From: an uncultured Chloroflexia bacterium
GTDB lineage: Bacteria; Chloroflexota; Limnocylindria; Limnocylindrales; CSP1-4
Direction: 5' to 3'
NCBI GenBank assembly: GCA_963748625.1
Contig: CAVVJT010000007.1
Coordinates: 1,216,001-1,280,000, forward strand
DNA length: 64,000 nucleotides
Position 1 is the stretch's first letter, and each line of letters opens with the position of its first letter. The position numbers and the translations under genes are program-made. Positions 26,714 to 64,000 of this stretch are shown here, piece after piece. Under the pieces are notes generated by a model. The model searched no databases and was not told where the DNA came from. It saw nothing but the letters and a program-made list of their open reading frames with translations.

Positions 26714-28915
26714 GTGGGGAAGAACGTCGCCGTCTTCGTGGACGTGGCGAACATCTTCTACGCGGCCAAAGCGGCCGGTGTGGATATCGACTACGTCACG
26801 CTGCTGAAGTCGGCCACCGCCGGACGTGATTTCGTCCGTGCGTATGCCTATACCGGGCTCGACCCGGACAACGAGAACCAGCGCAACTTCCACCAGTTCC
26901 TCGCCCGCCACCAGTACAAGGTGGTCAGCAAGGACATCCGCAAGTACGGCGACGGCAAGGTCAAGGCGAACCTCGACATCGAGCTCGTCGTCGACATGAT
27001 GAAGACGGCCCGCAACCTGGATGTGGCCGTGGTCGTGTCGGGTGACGGGGACTTCGCGCCCGCGATCCGCGCCGTCCAGGAGATGGGCGTCCGCGTCGAG
27101 GTCATCAGCTTCCGCGGCAACACGTCATCCGACCTCATGGAGGTCGCGGACCTGTTCACCGACATCTCCCACATCGCCAAGGTGGACAAGGGTTCGTCGC
27201 GCTCCGGGCGCCGTGTCTCGGACGACGACGAGGACCTGTCGATGACCGAGGTCCCCGACAAGATGACCGAGGGCACCGGCCGTGGCCGTGGCCGTGGCCG
27301 TGGCCGGGGTCGGGGTGAGGACCGCGAGGAGTCGCGTGAGACGCGGACCCGCGGTCGCGGGCGGACCACACGCTCCGAGGAGCGCGAGGAGGTCACCCCG
27401 GTCGCGCCGGTCGGGACGGCCGGCGGCCGCCTCGTCGCCCTGCCGGGCGAGAAGCTGTCGCGCGCCACGTCGGCTGCTGTCGATGAGATCGACGAGGTCG
27501 AGGAGCTCGACGAGACCGCCGCGGAGGGCACCGAGGGTGTCGAGGGCGAGCTCGAGGGCGAGGGTGACGCCCAGCGCCGCCGCCGCCGCCGCCGCGGTGG
27601 TCGCGGCCGGGGTCGTGGCCGGCGGGACGAGGGGGAGCTCGAGGCCGGTGCCGAGGGTGAGGTCGTCGAGGGCGACGAGAGCGCCGTCGCCGCTGCCGCC
27701 GACGAGGCGGACGAGGAGGAGGACGAGGACGAGGCTGTCGCCCAGGACGAGGCCTCCGAGGACGCCGAGCCCCAGGCGGCCAAGGCGCGCCCGGCCCGCA
27801 CCGACCGCGGTGGTCGTGGCAGCCCGAGCCGCACGCCTTCGGGTGAGCTGCCCACGCCGTTCGACGACATCGAGGCGCTGGCGGCTCCGCGGGCACCCCG
27901 GTCCACGCCGTTCGGGTCGGTCTGGGATCGCCAGATCGGCACGCCGGCCGCGCGGCCGGCTGCAAGCACTGCGCCGCTTGACGACGAGGAGGACCTCGAA
28001 GAGCCCGAGATCCCGGAGTACCTGCTGGCGGAGCGCCGGCGTGGTCAGGGTGGCCAGGGCAATCGCGGTGGCCAGGGCGGCAATCGCGGTGGGCGCGGCG
28101 GGCGCGGTGGCGCGTACGCGGCGGCCATCGAGCGCGAGCGCTACGGCGGCGCGCGCGGCAGTGGCACCACCACCAGCCGGTACGGCGAGCCCAACCGTGG
28201 CGGCCCGCAGGGCGGCCGTGGTGATGGCCCGCAGGGCGGCCGTGGTGGCACCCCGCAGGGTGGCCGCAGCGGAGCCGCACCGCGACCGCGCAGCGATCGG
28301 CAGGAACGACCTGACCGCGCTCCGCGACCCAGCGGTGGCGCTGAGTGGAGCGAGGTTCCGCCGGAGCTCGAGGCGATGCTCCTTGCGCAGATGAGCACCA
28401 AGGCCCCGGAGCGCACGCGCCGGCCCGCTCCTGCCGCCGGGACCGCTGCCGAGGCACCCGCCGCGGCCGCGCCGAAGCGCCGGACGACCCGCAAGGCCGC
28501 CCCGGCCGCCGAGGCCCAGGCCCCGGTGGTCCCCGCCGAGACCGCTGCCGAGGCACCCGCCGCGGCCGCGCCGAAGCGCCGGACGACCCGCAAGGCCGCC
28601 CCGGCCGCCGAGGCCCAGGCCCCGGTGGTCCCCGCCGAGACCGCTGCCGAGGCACCCGCCGCGGCCGCGCCGAAGCGCCGGACGACCCGCAAGGCCGCCC
28701 CGGCCGCCGAGGCCCAGGCCCCGGTGGTCCCCGCCGAGACCGCTGCCGAGGCACCCGCCGCGGCCGCGCCGAAGCGCCGGACGACCCGCAAGGCCGCCCC
28801 GGCCGCCGAGGCCCAGGCCCCGGTGGTCCCCGCCGAGACCGCTGCCGAGGCACCCGCCGCGGCCGCGCCGAAGCGCCGGACGACCCGCAAGGCCGCCCCG
28901 GCCGCCGAGGGCTGA
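26714..28915 (+). CDS. NYN (LabA/DUF88) domain protein with a long disordered C-terminus
   Basis: VFVDVANI, KANLDIELVVD, SGDGDF..AI...G.RVEV..F..SSDL...AD.F in the first ~160 aa; then acidic, RG-rich and repeat tracts. Confidence 0.92.
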   Translation: MGKNVAVFVDVANIFYAAKAAGVDIDYVTLLKSATAGRDFVRAYAYTGLDPDNENQRNFHQFLARHQYKVVSKDIRKYGDGKVKANLDIELVVDMMKTARNLDVAVVVSGDGDFAPAIRAVQEMGVRVEVISFRGNTSSDLMEVADLFTDISHIAKVDKGSSRSGRRVSDDDEDLSMTEVPDKMTEGTGRGRGRGRGRGRGEDREESRETRTRGRGRTTRSEEREEVTPVAPVGTAGGRLVALPGEKLSRATSAAVDEIDEVEELDETAAEGTEGVEGELEGEGDAQRRRRRRRGGRGRGRGRRDEGELEAGAEGEVVEGDESAVAAAADEADEEEDEDEAVAQDEASEDAEPQAAKARPARTDRGGRGSPSRTPSGELPTPFDDIEALAAPRAPRSTPFGSVWDRQIGTPAARPAASTAPLDDEEDLEEPEIPEYLLAERRRGQGGQGNRGGQGGNRGGRGGRGGAYAAAIERERYGGARGSGTTTSRYGEPNRGGPQGGRGDGPQGGRGGTPQGGRSGAAPRPRSDRQERPDRAPRPSGGAEWSEVPPELEAMLLAQMSTKAPERTRRPAPAAGTAAEAPAAAAPKRRTTRKAAPAAEAQAPVVPAETAAEAPAAAAPKRRTTRKAAPAAEAQAPVVPAETAAEAPAAAAPKRRTTRKAAPAAEAQAPVVPAETAAEAPAAAAPKRRTTRKAAPAAEAQAPVVPAETAAEAPAAAAPKRRTTRKAAPAAEG
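28441..28910 (+). repeat. 99-bp coding tandem repeat (~4.7 identical copies)
   Basis: Units start at 28441, 28540, 28639, 28738 and 28837, each encoding TAAEAPAAAAPKRRTTRKAAPAAEAQAPVVPAE. Confidence 0.95.
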
Positions 28916-28940
28916 CCCTCCGCATCGGGGACGATCTGAC

Positions 28941-40406: not shown

Positions 40407-40642
40407 GGGTCATTGTCGCGTGGACGCGCAAGGCACGCCGTAGCTGGCCCATGGCGGCGTCCCGGGTGTTCTCCGTCCTGTGCGAGCGGCCGATCGCGTC
40501 CGTGGAGAGGGTGCACATGGGCGCCTAGAACGTTGACACCGCTCCCGGAGACAGACGACGAGGGTCCCGATCGCGCCTCGGCCGCGGTGAGGACTCTCGC
40601 GAGCGCCGTTGACGGTGCTCGAGCGGGCGGTGGTCGTGCGGG

Positions 40643-55500: not shown

Positions 55501-55786
55501 CTGCGGCAGCGCCCGGCACGGTGGAGACGACCGCTGGCGTCGTCACGGTCACGGTCGCCCGGCATGGCGGCTGCCGGCCGGGTCGCACAACCCGCTTGCG
55601 CGGGCACCTCCCGCGGCGCATCGTGTCCCACTTCGGGTCCACCCTCAACGGGGCAGTCGAGCAGTCCGAGAAGGGAGGCGACGGCAAGGGCGGGAGCCCG
55701 GAGCGGGGCTGGTTCACTCCACGTCGGGGCGACGGAGCCCAGGCACGGGAGACAGGCGAGCACACCTCGGCAAGGGCGGGGCGGTT

Positions 55787-55863
55787 TGGCGCGCCCGACA
55801 GGATTCGAACCTGCAGATGCCACCATTATCGTGCGGGTCCCGATCGCGCCGCGGCCGTGGTGA
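55787..55863. mobile_element. att-like site 1: tRNA 3'-end fragment plus element arm
   Basis: Reverse complement of 55787-55815 is TGCAGGTTCGAATCCTGTCGGGCGCGCCA (T-arm, acceptor strand, CCA; tRNA-Arg-like); no 5' half. Confidence 0.8.
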
Positions 55864-55898
55864 CCGGACCAGACCCAGGCGATGACGACCCTCCCGGA

Positions 55899-57164
55899 TC
55901 AGGCTCCTAGGGCGCCGACCGCCACCTGGAGGACGCCGTCGGGCCGTGTGAACGAGTACCCAGTCCCCGTGATGACGACGAGCGCAACCGGCGGCCGCCC
56001 TGCCACCCGGTCGCGCAGGCGCAAGAGGCCTGCTGCCGCGGGATCGACGACGGAGGCGTGGGACCCGAGCTTGACCTCGAAGGCGGCCCAGTCGCCGCCG
56101 GGCAGCTCGATCACGGCGTCCGCCTCGAGGCCCGCAGCGTCCCGGTAGTGGTAGATCCGGCCCCTGAGCGGCCCGGCGAGGACCCGCAGGTCGCGTACGA
56201 CCAGGGATTCGAACAGCAGGCCCATCAGGTTGAGGTCGGCCAGCAGGGCGTCTGGGCCAGCCCCGAGGGCCGCCACCGCTAGTGACGGGTCGGCCAGGTG
56301 GCGGACGGGCGAGGCTCGCAGGCGGGTCCTGCTCCGCAGGCTGGGGCTCCATGCGGGGAGGTCATCGGTCAGCAGCAGGCGGTCGAGCGCCCCGAGGTAG
56401 GCACGGGCGGTCTCCACCTTCATCGAGCGGTCGGCGCCGGTGTCTGCCGCGAGGCCCTCCGCGCTCACAGGGCAGGCCGTGTTGCGGGCCAGCGAGGTCA
56501 GGAGCGCACGCACGCCCGCGGGATCCCGCCGCACACCATCGACACGCGGCACGTCGAGCCGGCAGACATCCTCGAGATAGCCCTCGTTGAGGAGGGAGGC
56601 CTGCGCCGGAGTCAGGCCCAGGTTGCCCGGCCATCCGCCGACCACCAGCCGCTCCGCGAGGTCGCCGACCCGGAGCCCGGGATCCGGCGCGCTCACCGGC
56701 TCGCCTGCGAGCACCCGTGCCAGCGAGACCGACCTCGTCGAGTGGCCACTCTCCACGAGTGCCATCGGGCGCATCCGGAGGCGGATGAAGCGGCCCGCAC
56801 CCGAATGCCGCCGCGCGTCGTCCCGGGGCACCGACGAGCCGGTGAGCACGAACTGGCCCGGCGCCCGGCGATCGTCGACCTCGTGGCGCACCAGGTTCCA
56901 GAGGTCCGGCACCTCCTGCCACTCGTCGATGAGGCGCGGCGTCGCGCCGGCGAGCACGAGGGCTGGGTCGACGGCGAACGCCTGTTGGGCGGCGGGCGTG
57001 TCCATGCGGATCTCGCTGGTCGCCGCCTGGCGGGCGGTCTCCGTCTTCCCGCAGGCCCGGGGTCCCTCGATGACGACGGCTCCAGCCGCTCCGAGTGTCT
57101 CGTGGAGCTGGGCGTCTATCACCCGCTGCCGGTACTCGTGGAGGGGCGGATCAGGGGTCGTCAC
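55899..57164 (-). CDS. AAA+ ATPase with DUF4143 domain
   Basis: EGPRACGKT, LIDEWQ, LTGS, GAGR, FESLVVRDL, YHYRD..GLEADAV, FEVKLG; start GTG 57164. Confidence 0.9.
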   Translation of the reverse strand: MTTPDPPLHEYRQRVIDAQLHETLGAAGAVVIEGPRACGKTETARQAATSEIRMDTPAAQQAFAVDPALVLAGATPRLIDEWQEVPDLWNLVRHEVDDRRAPGQFVLTGSSVPRDDARRHSGAGRFIRLRMRPMALVESGHSTRSVSLARVLAGEPVSAPDPGLRVGDLAERLVVGGWPGNLGLTPAQASLLNEGYLEDVCRLDVPRVDGVRRDPAGVRALLTSLARNTACPVSAEGLAADTGADRSMKVETARAYLGALDRLLLTDDLPAWSPSLRSRTRLRASPVRHLADPSLAVAALGAGPDALLADLNLMGLLFESLVVRDLRVLAGPLRGRIYHYRDAAGLEADAVIELPGGDWAAFEVKLGSHASVVDPAAAGLLRLRDRVAGRPPVALVVITGTGYSFTRPDGVLQVAVGALGA

Positions 57165-57213
57165 GTGCCCATTGTCGAGGCCAGCCGCCGTTGCGTCAAT
57201 CCCAAGGGATCGG

Positions 57214-57261
57214 CTTGCAGATCCAACGGGGGGTTGCCTTGCAGTGTTGACAGGGGGTTGC
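57214..57261. repeat. 24-bp direct repeat upstream of the DUF4143 ATPase
   Basis: CTTGCAGATCCAACGGGGGGTTGC / CTTGCAGTGTTGACAGGGGGTTGC. Confidence 0.6.
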
Positions 57262-57540
57262 GGGCCCACGTTCGCGCGGGCTTGCGCTGGCCGCGGAGGT
57301 GCGACAACCGGTCGGCAAGGCGGGCCAGCCGGAGGCATCGGGCTCGTAATGAACAAATCTGCGCGAATCCGTTAGCAGCGATCTCCCTAATGAACGGTCT
57401 TGACGACGGGACCCCTGCGAGATGGCGGGAGCGGGACCTGCCCGTTCGCCGCCGACGCGGTGCCCTTCGCGCATCGTGATCGAGGCCTGCATGGCACCGC
57501 ACCCCAGCGGCTGCCCGTCGGTCCGCACGAGGAGCGACAG

Positions 57541-57711
57541 ATGCAGGAAGACCGCATCGAGGCCGACCCGCCGACGGGCGACCAGCCTGCCACTCCGGGC
57601 GGCAGCGACCGGCTCATCGCCGCCCCTGCGGCCGTGATCCATGACGCGATGGCAGCCGACGATGCCGCCGGGCGGGACCTGCCGCTGTCGGGCGAGGAGG
57701 ACGAGGACTGA
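57541..57711 (+). CDS. Small acidic hypothetical protein
   Basis: GAGGAG RBS 6 nt before the ATG; 56 aa. Confidence 0.4.
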   Translation: MQEDRIEADPPTGDQPATPGGSDRLIAAPAAVIHDAMAADDAAGRDLPLSGEEDED

Positions 57712-58073
57712 CGCCACGACGACCACGCCTCGGATCAGGGGAGCGCCCGGCTCGCCTCAGTCGTCTGAAGACTGCGCAATGCGCCCGCGATCACGCTCGT
57801 CCGCGACGACCAGCGGCCAGTCCCAGAGTCCCGCCTCGGCGATACGGGCCTTGTCGCCCACAACGACACACAACTCGCTTGCTCGGACATTCCCCGCAGC
57901 GCATCGTGTCTCACGTCGGGTGACACCGGCAGGGAAGTCAAGCACAGGGAGTAGGGAGGCAACCGAAGAGCAGGTGCCCGGGCCAGGGATGGTCGCCACT
58001 GCTGGACGCCAACGGGCTACAGAGCCGGGACGGTAAGAGAGCACACGAGACCGAGGGGAGAGGCGGGGTGGTT

Positions 58074-58150
58074 TGGCGCGCCCGACAGGAGTCGAACCTG
58101 CAGATGCCACTATTTTCGTGAAGGTCCCGATTGCGCCGCGCCCGTGGTGA
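58074..58150. mobile_element. att-like site 2: tRNA 3'-end fragment plus element arm
   Basis: Reverse complement of 58074-58102 is TGCAGGTTCGACTCCTGTCGGGCGCGCCA; direct repeat of 55787-55863. Confidence 0.8.
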
Positions 58151-58621: not shown

Positions 58622-59425
58622 TCACCACCTGCGGTCAGGGTAGCCGCGTCGCTTCTTCTGAGCAGGGATGGCAGCCGCGTATGCGCGAATGCCGCTCCAT
58701 GCAGCGTGATACCTGTCAGCGTCCTCGGCGAGCCGCCCCTCGATCCACTCCTCAAGCGCTTTGACGGGCAGGAGGACCCGCTTGCCGATGCGCAGGCTCG
58801 GGATCGTGCCCGCAGCAGCAAGCGACCCGACGGTGGAGGTGGAGAGCCCGAGCACTCGGGAGGCGTCGGCGACCGAGATCAGCAGTGGCTCCATACCTAC
58901 GGCGAAGCGCTCTTCTGCTGGCGCCACCACTTCAGGGCCCTCCCTTGACTTCGCTTGCGGCTCAGCCGGTGCGGACGGCGGTGGCTGTGCCCAAGGGTCG
59001 TCCAACTCGCGATGTTCTGGCCGCGAGACGTGGTAGCTCATCGCGACGGGGTCGATGAGCAGGGCGCACCTCAGGCAGATCCGCTTCGGGGACGGAGCGT
59101 CCTCAGGCAACTGGCGGACGAGCCTCTCGATAGCGATGCCGACCTGGCGGGCCTCCACGCGGAGTGACGCGCCTCCCCCAAGGTTCGCGATCCCCACCCA
59201 TACGTTGTCCGGACGCCGGAAGACACCGCTCTCGCCGTGCGCGAGGCCGAAGTGACGGCCCTCCGGATCGATTGGCCGGATCCGATCCGGCGAGATCGCC
59301 CGGGGTGCGATCACGCACTCCCTGTGCGCCTGGGAGTTGAGGTGCCGATCCCAGTCGCGCCACAGCCTCCACGTCACGACCACATCGCAAACGGCACAGA
59401 AACTCACGCGCTCGACCGCCGCCAT
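58622..59425 (-). CDS. Excisionase-like HTH protein with two C2H2-type fingers
   Basis: C-terminal LLISVADASRVLGLS.STV..L...G.IPS.RIGKRVLLP...LEEW (HTH_17-like); two CxxC...HxxxxxH motifs; start probably 59425. Confidence 0.75.
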   Translation of the reverse strand: MAAVERVSFCAVCDVVVTWRLWRDWDRHLNSQAHRECVIAPRAISPDRIRPIDPEGRHFGLAHGESGVFRRPDNVWVGIANLGGGASLRVEARQVGIAIERLVRQLPEDAPSPKRICLRCALLIDPVAMSYHVSRPEHRELDDPWAQPPPSAPAEPQAKSREGPEVVAPAEERFAVGMEPLLISVADASRVLGLSTSTVGSLAAAGTIPSLRIGKRVLLPVKALEEWIEGRLAEDADRYHAAWSGIRAYAAAIPAQKKRRGYPDRRW

Positions 59426-59560
59426 ACCCTCGATTGTGGAGCCAGTGGGGGTCGATGTAACGGCGATTCCGCGGCTGTTCATCGTGGTGACGGTGACGAT
59501 GCCCTCCTGCCGCCTGCCCGCCGGTCGATCGCGTGGAGGGCAGCATGGCAACCTTGCGTT

Positions 59561-60082
59561 GTGAAGTGGCGACGTTCGATTACCGGCCCTCGGCTGCCTG
59601 AGCAAGTGCGCCAGCACGCCCCCATCCCGGAGGTCGTCGCTGCTCGACTGCTCCGGTATGACGGCGACCGGCCCCTATACCTGGATCTGCTCCAGTTTGG
59701 GAGCGGGCCTGTGGGAGTCATGGAGGAGGACTACCCATACTGGGTCATCCGGGATGCCGAAGGTCGCGTGGTGGGTGGCGCGAAGGTGATGCGCATGCCG
59801 GCTGGTCACCCGGTGTCGCTCGACGTCGCCATCGCGCCGGACCGTCAAGGCCTTGGGTGGGCGACCGCCCTCTACGATGCGTTGACGGCGCGTGGGATCG
59901 ACGTCGAGGCAGGCTCATCAGCTTCGCTCGCCCACGGGACGATGACCCTCGACGGCTACCTCTTCATGCGAGCTCGGCGTCTGCGGACCGACCCGGACGC
60001 CGAGGCCCAGATGGTCGCCGAGGCCAACGTTTGCCCGATGTGCGGTCCCTTGGACGAGCCCAGGGCCCAGGCGGACGAGTAG
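59561..60082 (+). CDS. GNAT-family acetyltransferase
   Basis: DVAIAPDRQGLGWATALY motif A; C-terminal CPMC; start uncertain. Confidence 0.65.
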   Translation: MKWRRSITGPRLPEQVRQHAPIPEVVAARLLRYDGDRPLYLDLLQFGSGPVGVMEEDYPYWVIRDAEGRVVGGAKVMRMPAGHPVSLDVAIAPDRQGLGWATALYDALTARGIDVEAGSSASLAHGTMTLDGYLFMRARRLRTDPDAEAQMVAEANVCPMCGPLDEPRAQADE

Positions 60083-62524: not shown

Positions 62525-64000
62525 TTGGGGGACTCAGGACTCAACAACCACGCAGGGCTGATCTGGTCGATCGCCGACCTGCTCCGCGGTGACTACAAGC
62601 AGTCCGAGTACGGCCGCGTCATCCTGCCGCTCGTCGTGCTGCGCCGGCTCGACTGCGTGCTCGAGCCCACCAAGGCCCAGGTCCAGAAGCGCCTGGAGAC
62701 CGCGATCGGTCGAGAACGTCGGCGTCCTGCTCCGCGCGATCACCGGGCTCGATGTCTACAACACGAGCCGCCTCACCCTGCGGACGATCCTCGCCGACCC
62801 GGCCCAGGTCGCCGGCAACCTGCGCGCCTGGATCGCGGGCTTCGACCCCGACACCCGCGACGTCATCGAGAAGTTCGACTTCGACGCCCAGATCGGGCGG
62901 CTCGACCGGGCCAAGATCCTGTACCTCGTGCTGTCGCAAGGTGACCGAGGTCGACCTCCACCCGGACACCGTCAGCAACACCGAGATGGGCTACCTCTAC
63001 GAGGAGCTCGTCCGCCGCTTCTCCGAGCTCTCCAACGAGACCGCGGGCGAGCACTTCACGCCGCGCGAGGTCATCCGCCTGATGGTGGACCTCCTGTTCA
63101 TCGAGGACGACGAGGCCCTGCGCACCCCGGGCATCGTGCGCACCCTGCTCGACCCCGCGTGCGGCACGGGCGGCATGCTCTCGGTGGCGGCCGACCACCT
63201 GCATGCGCTCAACCCGGGCGCCCACCTCGAGGCGTACGGCCAGGAGCTCAACGCCGAGACGTACGCCGTCGGCCGCTCGGACATGATGCTCAAGGGCCAG
63301 GACGGCGCGGAACATCCGCCTCGGCAACAGCTTCAGCGAGGACCAGCTTCAAGGGCGAGCGCTTCGACTACTGCCTCGCCAATCCGCCGTTCGGGGTGGA
63401 GTGGAAGAAGGTCGAGCGCGAGGTCCGCGACGAGGCCGACAAGCTCGGCTTCAAGGGCCGCTTCGGCGCCGGCACTCCCGCGCATCAACGACGGCTCGTT
63501 CCTGTTCCTCCAGCACATGATCAGCAAGCTGAAGGCACCGGCCGAGGGCGGTGGCCGCCTGGCCATCGTCTTCAACGGCTCGCCGCTGTTCACCGGCGGC
63601 GCGGGCAGCGGCGAGAGCGAGATCCGGCGCTGGATCATCGAGAACGACTGGCTCGAGGGCATCGTCGCCCTGCCCGACCAGCTCTTCTACAACACCGGCA
63701 TCAGCACCTACTTCTGGATCGTCACCAACCGCAAGCGCCCCGAGCGCCGGGGCCTTGTCCAGCTGGTGGACGCGCGCGAGCTCTTCACCAAGATGCGCAA
63801 GTCCCTGGGCGAGAAGCGCAAGGCGATCAGCGACGACCAGATCGGCGAGATCGCGCGCCTCTACGGCGACTTCACCGAGGGCGAGCGCGTCAAGATCCTG
63901 CCCAACGAGGCCTTCGGCTTCCAGCGGATCACGGTCGAGCGGCCGCTGCGCAAGCGCTACTCCGTGCCGGCCGACTTCAGGACTGTCGCGACGCAGGCAC
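62525..64000 (+). pseudogene. hsdM: Type I restriction-modification methyltransferase (HsdM), multiply frameshifted as assembled; runs off window
   Basis: [66 protein letters not shown] (63381), FNGSPLFTG, LPDQLFYNTGI; frame changes near 62705, 62937, 63305, 63345 and 63474. Confidence 0.92.

Follow-up and report, generated by a model that had tools for sequence, protein, structure and literature searches.

Repeat Units in the Window

The stretch of DNA analyzed here (hereafter the window; 64,000 nt) lies on contig C7 of the 4.6-Mb genome of an uncultured Chloroflexota bacterium (GenBank assembly GCA_963748625.1) and contains an 89-nt direct repeat (55775-55863 versus 58062-58150; 91% identity; 2287 nt apart). 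Within this repeat are two 77-nt units (copy A, 55787-55863; copy B, 58074-58150), each consisting of the last 28 nt of tRNA-Arg(CCG) in antisense orientation followed by a 49-nt tail that extends to a TGA. On the + strand both units read LARPTG(F/V)EPADATI(I/F)V(R/K)VPIAPRPW up to this stop codon. We consider it probable that the two units are distal junctions, each left by an element inserted in tRNA-Arg(CCG) by a member of a serine-recombinase family that has its attachment site (attP) in the last ~27-30 codons of its own gene.

Tails A and B differ by three synonymous changes (ACC/ACT, ATC/ATT, and CGG/CGC) and two amino acid-changing ones (ATC/TTC, I/F; CGG/AAG, R/K), with one additional change in the tRNA part (TTC/GTC, F/V), and the alignment of the copies breaks off directly after the TGA. 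The original prediction, made from the DNA of the window, had described two att-like copies, their + strand peptides, these substitutions, and an end of similarity at the TGA, all of which repeat search and alignment reproduced. Its caveat that the left flanks of the copies are also alike holds as well: identity is ~75% over 291 nt (83% in 55586-55638 versus 57869-57921), with indels of lengths not divisible by three, which break any frame.

Positions 55785-55814 match C8:28849-28878 at 30 of 30 nucleotides, that is, the 3' end of the sole tRNA-Arg(CCG) gene in the genome, which is intact and located on a different contig (C8, complement of 28851-28926). No complete tRNA gene was identified within the window (ARAGORN, 0 genes), and no intact tRNA lies farther right on C7. 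The 28-nt end of the tail has three occurrences in the genome, all on the + strand and all within the window; a tail-only remnant 15 kb left of copy A (Table 1) might represent a more ancient joint of this array that has since eroded.

A Serine Integrase Running Into tRNA-Arg

As had been anticipated, a recombinase ORF enters the att core in the ARPTGFEP frame. It is located on C8, where the ORF of the 515-aa serine recombinase P0001 (locus L050, 9369-10916) runs into the intact tRNA-Arg gene; ORFs of the same kind are found in relatives (loci L017, L053, and L061). The C-terminus of P0001 (...ARPTGFEPATFGSGGRRSIH, ..ALARPTGFEPATFGSGGRRSIH, ..RPRKSMALARPTGFEPATFGSGGRRSIH, each up to the stop codon) ends 65 nt inside the antisense tRNA-Arg gene. 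P0001 was the only member of its family identified in a whole-genome scan.

P0001 contains the resolvase catalytic domain PF00239 (43 bits, cut-off 23.3; E 6.1e-11); the Recombinase domain PF07508 scores 19.3 bits, under the cut-off of 21.1, and is present in the homologs P0085, P0095, P0111, and P0112 according to precomputed annotation. Across 50 aligned sequences, residues C291, C293, and H311 do not vary and C316 is conserved at 90% or more; an AlphaFold2 (AF2) model of a family member has helices across residues 328-444. The conserved Cys and His residues would form a zinc ribbon, and the helices a coiled coil. The enzyme of this family is a large serine recombinase, with recombination activity predicted from its sequence; the comparison to SSV1-type integrases, which are tyrosine recombinases, is not upheld. 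In SSV1-type elements, integration splits the integrase gene into two large parts and does not swap a short tail.

Two C-Terminal Forms Across the Integrase Family

The C-termini were classified in the best 120 of 541 P0001 homologs (E <= 1e-20). In total, 67 have antisense-tRNA ends: the antisense peptide of tRNA-Arg(CCG) (..ATFGSGGRRSIH/R) forms the terminus of 41, and other typical antisense-tRNA peptides (DSNLRP.., DSNPRP.., FEPAA.., or LEPPT..) form that of 26. A further 40 (plus three assigned by eye) carry a conserved native tail, ..ARPTGV.RA.T..[IV]R[IV]PIEG..EW..AARRSA, directly followed by the stop codon, and the remaining 13 have another or a truncated end. Because 26 of the 120 end in the antisense peptides of other tRNAs, the family appears to have changed its tRNA target many times, with attP staying in the gene. 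Homologs with such other-tRNA ends include P0023, P0029, P0036, P0040-P0046, P0053, P0056, and P0060.

In the native tail, two residues of the PIEG motif, P495 and G498, show conservation of at least 90% across 42 aligned native-tail members, and the terminus is [RKQ][STLIV]A in 32 of 43 tails. The AF2 model, made for one native-tail member from the 42-sequence alignment, has a mean predicted local distance difference test (pLDDT) score of 86.4; in this model, the segment coded by the ARPTG core is a low-confidence loop and the tail forms a strand (489-493) followed by a C-terminal helix (499-509), at pLDDT 83-92. Given this predicted fold, the native tail appears to belong to the structured portion of the enzyme and not to be a spacer. 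The suggestion that the window tail corresponds to the C-terminus of a recombinase in its uninterrupted gene is sustained, both by the native tails in the family and by the profile matches described below.

Relatives of P0001 are scarce among known phages (four weak matches only, 24-27% identity) and gave no match among plasmids. For the viral contigs of IMG/VR, a scan with a single protein gave no match, and a scan with an alignment found 24 contigs encoding relatives.

Free and Integrated Elements

Most of the IMG/VR viral contigs with relatives carry the native tail. In one of them (L062), the exact 16-nt tRNA end TGGCGCGCCCGACAGG lies within the integrase ORF at a distance of 27 codons from its stop, with the native tail following it, and no tRNA gene is present in the locus (ARAGORN). 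The integrated form is represented by a second viral contig (L061), in which the same integrase 3' end is fused to a real tRNA-Arg(ccg) that overlaps the end of the ORF. In most relatives that have no array, the true tRNA is directly preceded on its left (in the orientation of the window) by the 3' end of a long + strand ORF, which continues into the antisense tRNA in the ARPTGFEP frame; at L017 the ORF that enters the antisense tRNA is intact (517 aa). Overall, an integrase ORF that crosses the att core and has its stop beyond it was found for P0001, in the relatives G006 and G003, and on L061 and L062.

The complete genome G006 contains an intact integrase (L053) that reads into the tRNA at C1:1304881, and four distal junctions on the same strand 98-131 kb to its left, each with the core and a native-type tail (e.g., VGCSISTYTIPIEGREEWLAAARRLA up to the stop codon). 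These tails score 24-43 bits against the native-tail profile, which none of 500 shuffles reach. The outermost junction (L051, C1:1173588) and L053, 131 kb apart, have in common a 106-nt direct repeat, of which 92 nt are integrase coding sequence, with the shared identity stopping at ..ACAGG; it follows that the earlier target already held a 3' remnant of an integrase of the same type. Across all junctions, only the 16-nt block TGGCGCGCCCGACAGG is constant, and the T-loop part covaries with the tail and not with the left flank, so that, judging from these alignments, the crossover should lie inside the 16-nt block.

In the genome of the window, copy B lies 61 kb from the end of C7 and the tRNA 29 kb from the start of C8, which would sum to ~90 kb, compared with 98-131 kb in G006, and C8 and the window may be part of one array. 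Among the contigs of G000, C4 and C5 probably join, because the last 2.4 kb of C4 overlaps the first 2.4 kb of C5 at 99.4%; the right ends of C2 and C10 have 78 nt in common.

Tail Units in Relatives and in the Window

The 77-nt unit recurs in other genomes of the genus. Examination of the window and 31 loci yielded 27 full copies from 18 genomes, together with 15 copies of a shorter subfamily, in which 3 nt are deleted in frame and the end is longer and different. The frame is open to a stop at the same place, or within one codon of it, in 25 of the 27 full copies. In a codon test on the 26 ungapped copies (one of the 27 was dropped for a gap), variable sites were in excess at third positions (55/77/119 by codon position).

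The copies are often arranged in arrays downstream of a true tRNA-Arg, spaced 1.4-3.5 kb with single genes between them, and decayed integrase 3' ends are present at array joints in the relatives. The cargo consists mostly of ATPases with AAA_14 and DUF4143 domains, but also includes Fic, HipA, PIN, baeRF, and AlbA_2/HATPase_c_4 proteins. Cassettes at L021 (G028:C17), L022 (G031:C10), L029, and L042 have one gene per unit, encoding Fic/Fic_N, HipA, PIN_3, baeRF family 11, and AlbA_2 proteins.

For comparison of the window tails with native tails, a profile was built from the residues after the ARPTG anchor in 21 native integrase tails, and scores were compared with those of shuffled sequences. 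Tail A scores 13.3 bits and tail B 7.9 bits, and neither score is reached by any of 500 or any of 300 shuffles, the match of tail B being marginal (best shuffle 7.8). The control, an antisense-tRNA peptide, scores 0.3 bits, which is reached by 81 of 500 shuffles. Of 36 junction tails (peptides read from the DNA), 34, including both window tails, have scores reached by at most 3 of 300 shuffles. When aligned by eye to native tails, the window-type tail (..TIIVRVPIAPRPW up to the stop codon) retains the strand and the PI motif. By sequence, both window tails represent a shortened version of the native tail and are homologous to the C-terminus of the family; their conservation may be due to part of them serving as the element-side half-site or to recent common descent.

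Arms, Cassette, and Surroundings

Both window copies are preceded by left arms of one type (class i; Table 1), which is also found at junctions of relatives and beside the true tRNA in G028. Class i arms (window, L021, L022, L023, L035, L038, and L040) share the motif CACAACNCGCTTGC on the far side and, on the near side, ..GAGCAC..AAGAGCGGGGTGGTT adjoining the core; a second type of arm at junctions carries a GCCGC..GCGGC hairpin. ORFs that overlap the copies on either strand have a GC content at third codon positions of 0.6-0.7, versus 0.85 in the neighboring ATPase gene, and are not gene-like. Five long ORFs that enter the copies from the left gave no family matches against Pfam. The class i arm may itself be a decayed integrase end, but its DNA alignment to the 3' end of the C8 integrase is unconvincing and tblastn detected no integrase remnant in the window.

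The two units bound a 2.3-kb DUF4143 cassette and the start of a defense-gene island. The ATPase ORF of the cassette has a GC content by codon position of 0.78/0.55/0.85; it is given in Table 1 as the longest ORF, and the true start of the ATPase is probably farther in. Homologs of this ATPase adjoin the tail at nine other junctions in relatives, in both orientations.

To the right of copy B, the first ORF (58622-59617, - strand; 331 aa) encodes an HTH_17 excisionase-family domain near its C-terminus (Pfam 3.3e-10; TIGR01764 6.8e-09), and from this domain it could be a directionality factor or a regulator of the adjoining element. A run of genes resembling a defense island begins farther right (window 62593-64000, continuing to C7:1274000-1301810; L056 and L057) and includes a type I restriction-modification N6_Mtase, an HsdR-like SWI2/SNF2-ResIII protein, an AlbA_2/HATPase_c_4 protein, a ClpP-like SDH protease, and DUF6119.

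Table 1. Coordinates of the repeat units and associated features in the window.
Feature	Position	Strand	Remarks
Tail-only remnant (..RVPIAPRPR, then stop)	40562..40590	+	Without tRNA core; intergenic; 93% identical to tail A over 29 nt; two mismatches to the 28-nt end of the tail
Left arm of copy A (class i)	55586..55786		Non-coding; far-end motif CACAACCCGCTTGC; GGCGGGGCGGTT beside core; resembles arm of copy B
Copy A tRNA fragment	55787..55814	-	Displaced 28 nt (acceptor 3' strand, T arm, CCA); tRNA sense is minus; 30/30 identity over 55785-55814
Tail A (..ADATIIVRVPIAPRPW, then stop)	55815..55863	+	Orphaned last codons of a putative large-serine-recombinase gene, by native-tail profile score; TGA at 55861-55863
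AAA_14 and DUF4143 ATPase	55899..57356	-	Cargo of 2.3-kb integrase-less cassette; DUF4143 4.9e-30, AAA_14 5.6e-12 (Pfam)
Left arm of copy B (class i)	57869..58073		Non-coding; far end of DUF4143 cassette
Copy B tRNA fragment	58074..58101	-	3' fragment of tRNA-Arg(CCG); one T-loop mismatch
Tail B (..ADATIFVKVPIAPRPW, then stop)	58102..58150	+	Marginal profile match; TGA at 58148-58150

Proposed Explanation and Alternatives

The anatomy of the junctions, their homology, and the existence of two protein forms are all observed, and on this basis we assign a probability of about 0.85 to the interpretation of the repeats as distal junctions of serine-integrase elements in tRNA-Arg(CCG). The elements would belong to a family of large serine recombinases carried by phages or islands. 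When the element is free, its integrase ORF passes through 16 nt that duplicate the tRNA 3' end (..ARPTG..) into the conserved C-terminal strand and helix. Recombination in the 16-nt block would join the integrase gene to the antisense tRNA and create a new end (..FEPATFGSGGRRSIH up to the stop codon), so that integration exchanges the C-terminal strand and helix for 15 residues derived from the antisense tRNA. The native last codons stay at the far end of the element, beside the displaced tRNA fragment, and with stacked insertions (accretion) every internal joint retains a unit of core and tail. Excision would bring back the native end of the integrase, and integrase-less cassettes, such as that in the window, may be either moved in trans or relics.

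Several observations count against this interpretation. The intact tRNA and the integrase are on a different contig from the window copies, and the ends of C7 and C8 do not overlap; the link between the window and C8 is therefore unproven. An intact minus-strand tRNA had been expected to the right of the copies: the gene exists, on C8, but it is not found rightwards on C7. No integrase reads into either window copy, both being preceded by non-coding arms; no integrase remnant was detected in the window by tblastn, and in-frame ORFs upstream of the copies are without coding composition. The window-type tail stops directly after the W of ..EW.., 8 residues short of the native end, and consequently is without the last 8 residues of the helix, and the profile scores of window-type tails are modest (4-15 bits). 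At the codon level, the ratio of nonsynonymous to synonymous polymorphism (pN/pS) is 0.55 in the + frame versus 0.57-0.60 in the minus frame that shares its wobble positions, which is a weak test; second codon positions are more variable than first positions; and the motif GGTCCCGATCG is nearly invariant, third positions included, which fits constraint at the DNA level too. Regarding the protein-level selection that had been proposed for the tail, neither the third-position excess nor the pN/pS of 0.55 separates the + frame from this minus frame, and they do not count as strong evidence for it. Overall, the original prediction is supported in its architecture, but not in the class of the enzyme or its location.

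The near-invariance of GGTCCCGATCG at every codon position, and a pN/pS of only 0.55 that is equaled on the opposite strand, would also be expected if the tail were kept only as DNA, as an element-side half-site or an accessory binding site, with the frame and the likeness to integrases being incidental in the copies. Retention of the tail at 80-95% identity by integrase-less cassettes and the occurrence of core-less tail remnants point the same way. However, conservation reaches ~60 nt from the 16-nt block, and a serine-integrase half-site is only ~25 bp; conservation also stops at the stop codon, the same residues are conserved in integrases that are just 45-50% identical, and the tails match the native-tail profile. 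We therefore consider a DNA-only role for the tail unlikely. Still less probable is an independent micro-gene in each unit, encoding a peptide of 25 residues initiated at an NTG codon that overlaps the tRNA CCA. The open frames, the ATG, GTG, or TTG at the start codon of some copies, and a purine-rich stretch upstream are compatible with such a gene; but a start codon is present in only ~15 of 27 copies (alignment by eye), compared with three in four by chance, given that TG is fixed by the tRNA CCA, the upstream flanks belong to unrelated classes, and the peptide is accounted for as the end of an integrase.

The length of the unit (77 nt), which is that of a tRNA, and the similar left flanks of the window copies would suit a tRNA-like or small RNA gene, or a plain segmental duplication without site-specific recombination. 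We give this very little credence: ARAGORN identified 0 tRNA genes, Rfam gave no match on the unit at E <= 1, RNAalifold on the 27 copies gave -3.0 kcal/mol for one strand (0 compensatory pairs) and -1.9 kcal/mol for the other (1 compensatory pair), without covariation, the copies do not preserve the tRNA T stem, and the unit occurs at 27 places in 18 genomes with cargo that differs between copies. The chance that the repeats are att sites of an element with a tyrosine integrase (SSV1- or P4-type) is similarly slight. The 3' ends of tRNA genes are the classic targets of tyrosine integrases, and the SSV1 and Mx8 integrases span attP; however, the four PF00589 matches in the genome include none on C8, with the nearest on C7 ~399 kb away; integrases near the junctions in relatives (PF00589, five relatives) adjoin other tRNAs (tRNA-Gly and tRNA-Thr in G006 and G029); and the ORF that crosses the core encodes a serine recombinase.

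Two further candidates were rejected. An integron is not consistent with the absence of a nearby tyrosine recombinase and of a palindromic or folded consensus in the 77-nt unit. Integration-dependent immunity of the BPs type was set aside, as the core is crossed by the ORF of the recombinase itself; no search for a repressor was made.

Beyond the distal-junction interpretation, it is possible, but in our view rather doubtful, that the tail swap is a working switch, as the original prediction had proposed, and that integrase-less cassettes are captured and moved in trans by the family enzyme. As a switch, the free form (with the C-terminal strand, the helix, and the ..R(S/T/L)A end) could be integration-competent or short-lived, and the prophage form with the antisense-tRNA tail could be inactive, stabilized, or changed in direction. 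The units moved in trans could be the 1.4-3.5-kb single-gene cassettes (DUF4143 ATPase, Fic, HipA, PIN, or baeRF), which keep the core, the tail, and a conserved arm. Contigs from 4 of 20 public runs (share <= 0.22) contain no joint across the cassette, no usable junction, and no excised or empty-site form, only short pieces over the tRNA core, which is common to many organisms, and are uninformative on excision.

Comparison With Known Systems

The layout is already known in kind, from DsiB at ssrA and from IntP/IntX of Mx8. In the accounts given by McMurdie et al. (2011; PMC3146451), the 3' end of the Dehalococcoides serine recombinase gene dsiB always overlaps the ssrA att site, with the stop beyond the island; the ssrA islands form tandem stacks with joints that consist of a direct repeat and a conserved adjacent motif; 15 islands are without integration modules and are termed cis-mobilizable; DsiB is accompanied by a second, small recombinase (DsiA); and dsiB is proposed to be possibly fully functional only on the circle. 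Both systems have a large serine recombinase gene with its 3' end over att, a target at the T-loop end of a tRNA-like gene, stacks, and integrase-less units. They differ in that the target of DsiB is the tmRNA gene (ssrA), compared with tRNA-Arg for the P0001 family, and in that the overlapping C-terminus of DsiB is divergent and was doubted by its authors to be functional, whereas the native tail of the P0001 family is conserved and predicted to fold.

According to the Islander paper (2014; PMC4383910), the Mx8 and SSV integrases extend across attP, with Tojo et al. (1996) cited there for the change of the IntP C-terminus. On this account, Mx8 IntP/IntX resembles the P0001 family in having an integrase gene that runs across attP and a C-terminus that is changed, but it is a tyrosine recombinase; likewise, the genes of SSV1-type archaeal integrases lie across attP, but encode tyrosine recombinases. 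In mycobacteriophage BPs and prophages of M. abscessus, attP is reported to lie in the repressor gene, the viral and prophage C-termini differ, and the swap removes a degradation tag (PMC8092301, PMC4557955). This is similar in having attP in a gene, but the gene there is that of a repressor and the integrase is a tyrosine integrase, in contrast to the recombinase gene here; by analogy, the ..R(S/T/L)A end of the P0001 family is only suggestive of a degradation tag.

Tandem accretion of integrative elements and cis-mobilizable remnants flanked by direct repeats is described for tRNA-Arg of Streptomyces (PMC9513070), and integrative elements of Mycobacterium (AICEs) and phage phiRSM1 are listed as having serine recombinases at tRNA genes in a 2011 survey that calls such targeting rare (PMC3218068). 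The tandem stacks at a single tRNA gene that are reported in these sources resemble the arrays described here. Among layouts with attP inside a gene, the elements of the P0001 family are set apart by the tRNA target, the large family, and the clearly conserved native tail. The tRNA target matters because, in the statements of these papers, serine integrases at tRNA genes are either not known (PMC4383910) or rare (PMC3218068). A literature search, with supplements outside its scope, found no description of the P0001 family, which is not proof that there is none.

Significance

The findings explain startless but conserved mini-ORFs beside tRNA fragments as the severed ends of integrase genes, located at the joints between stacked elements. 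They also add a large family of tRNA-targeting serine integrases (541 homologs) with attP in their own gene and, consequently, a natural pair of protein forms. If both the tail-swap switch and movement in trans were true, the tRNA-Arg locus would be an integron-like collector of defense and toxin genes, with a serine integrase as its driver. In genome annotation, a gene of this integrase family should be neither trimmed nor called a pseudogene when it runs into a tRNA gene. The pair of protein forms makes C-terminal control of the direction or lifetime of a serine integrase testable, which is also relevant to the use of integrases as tools.

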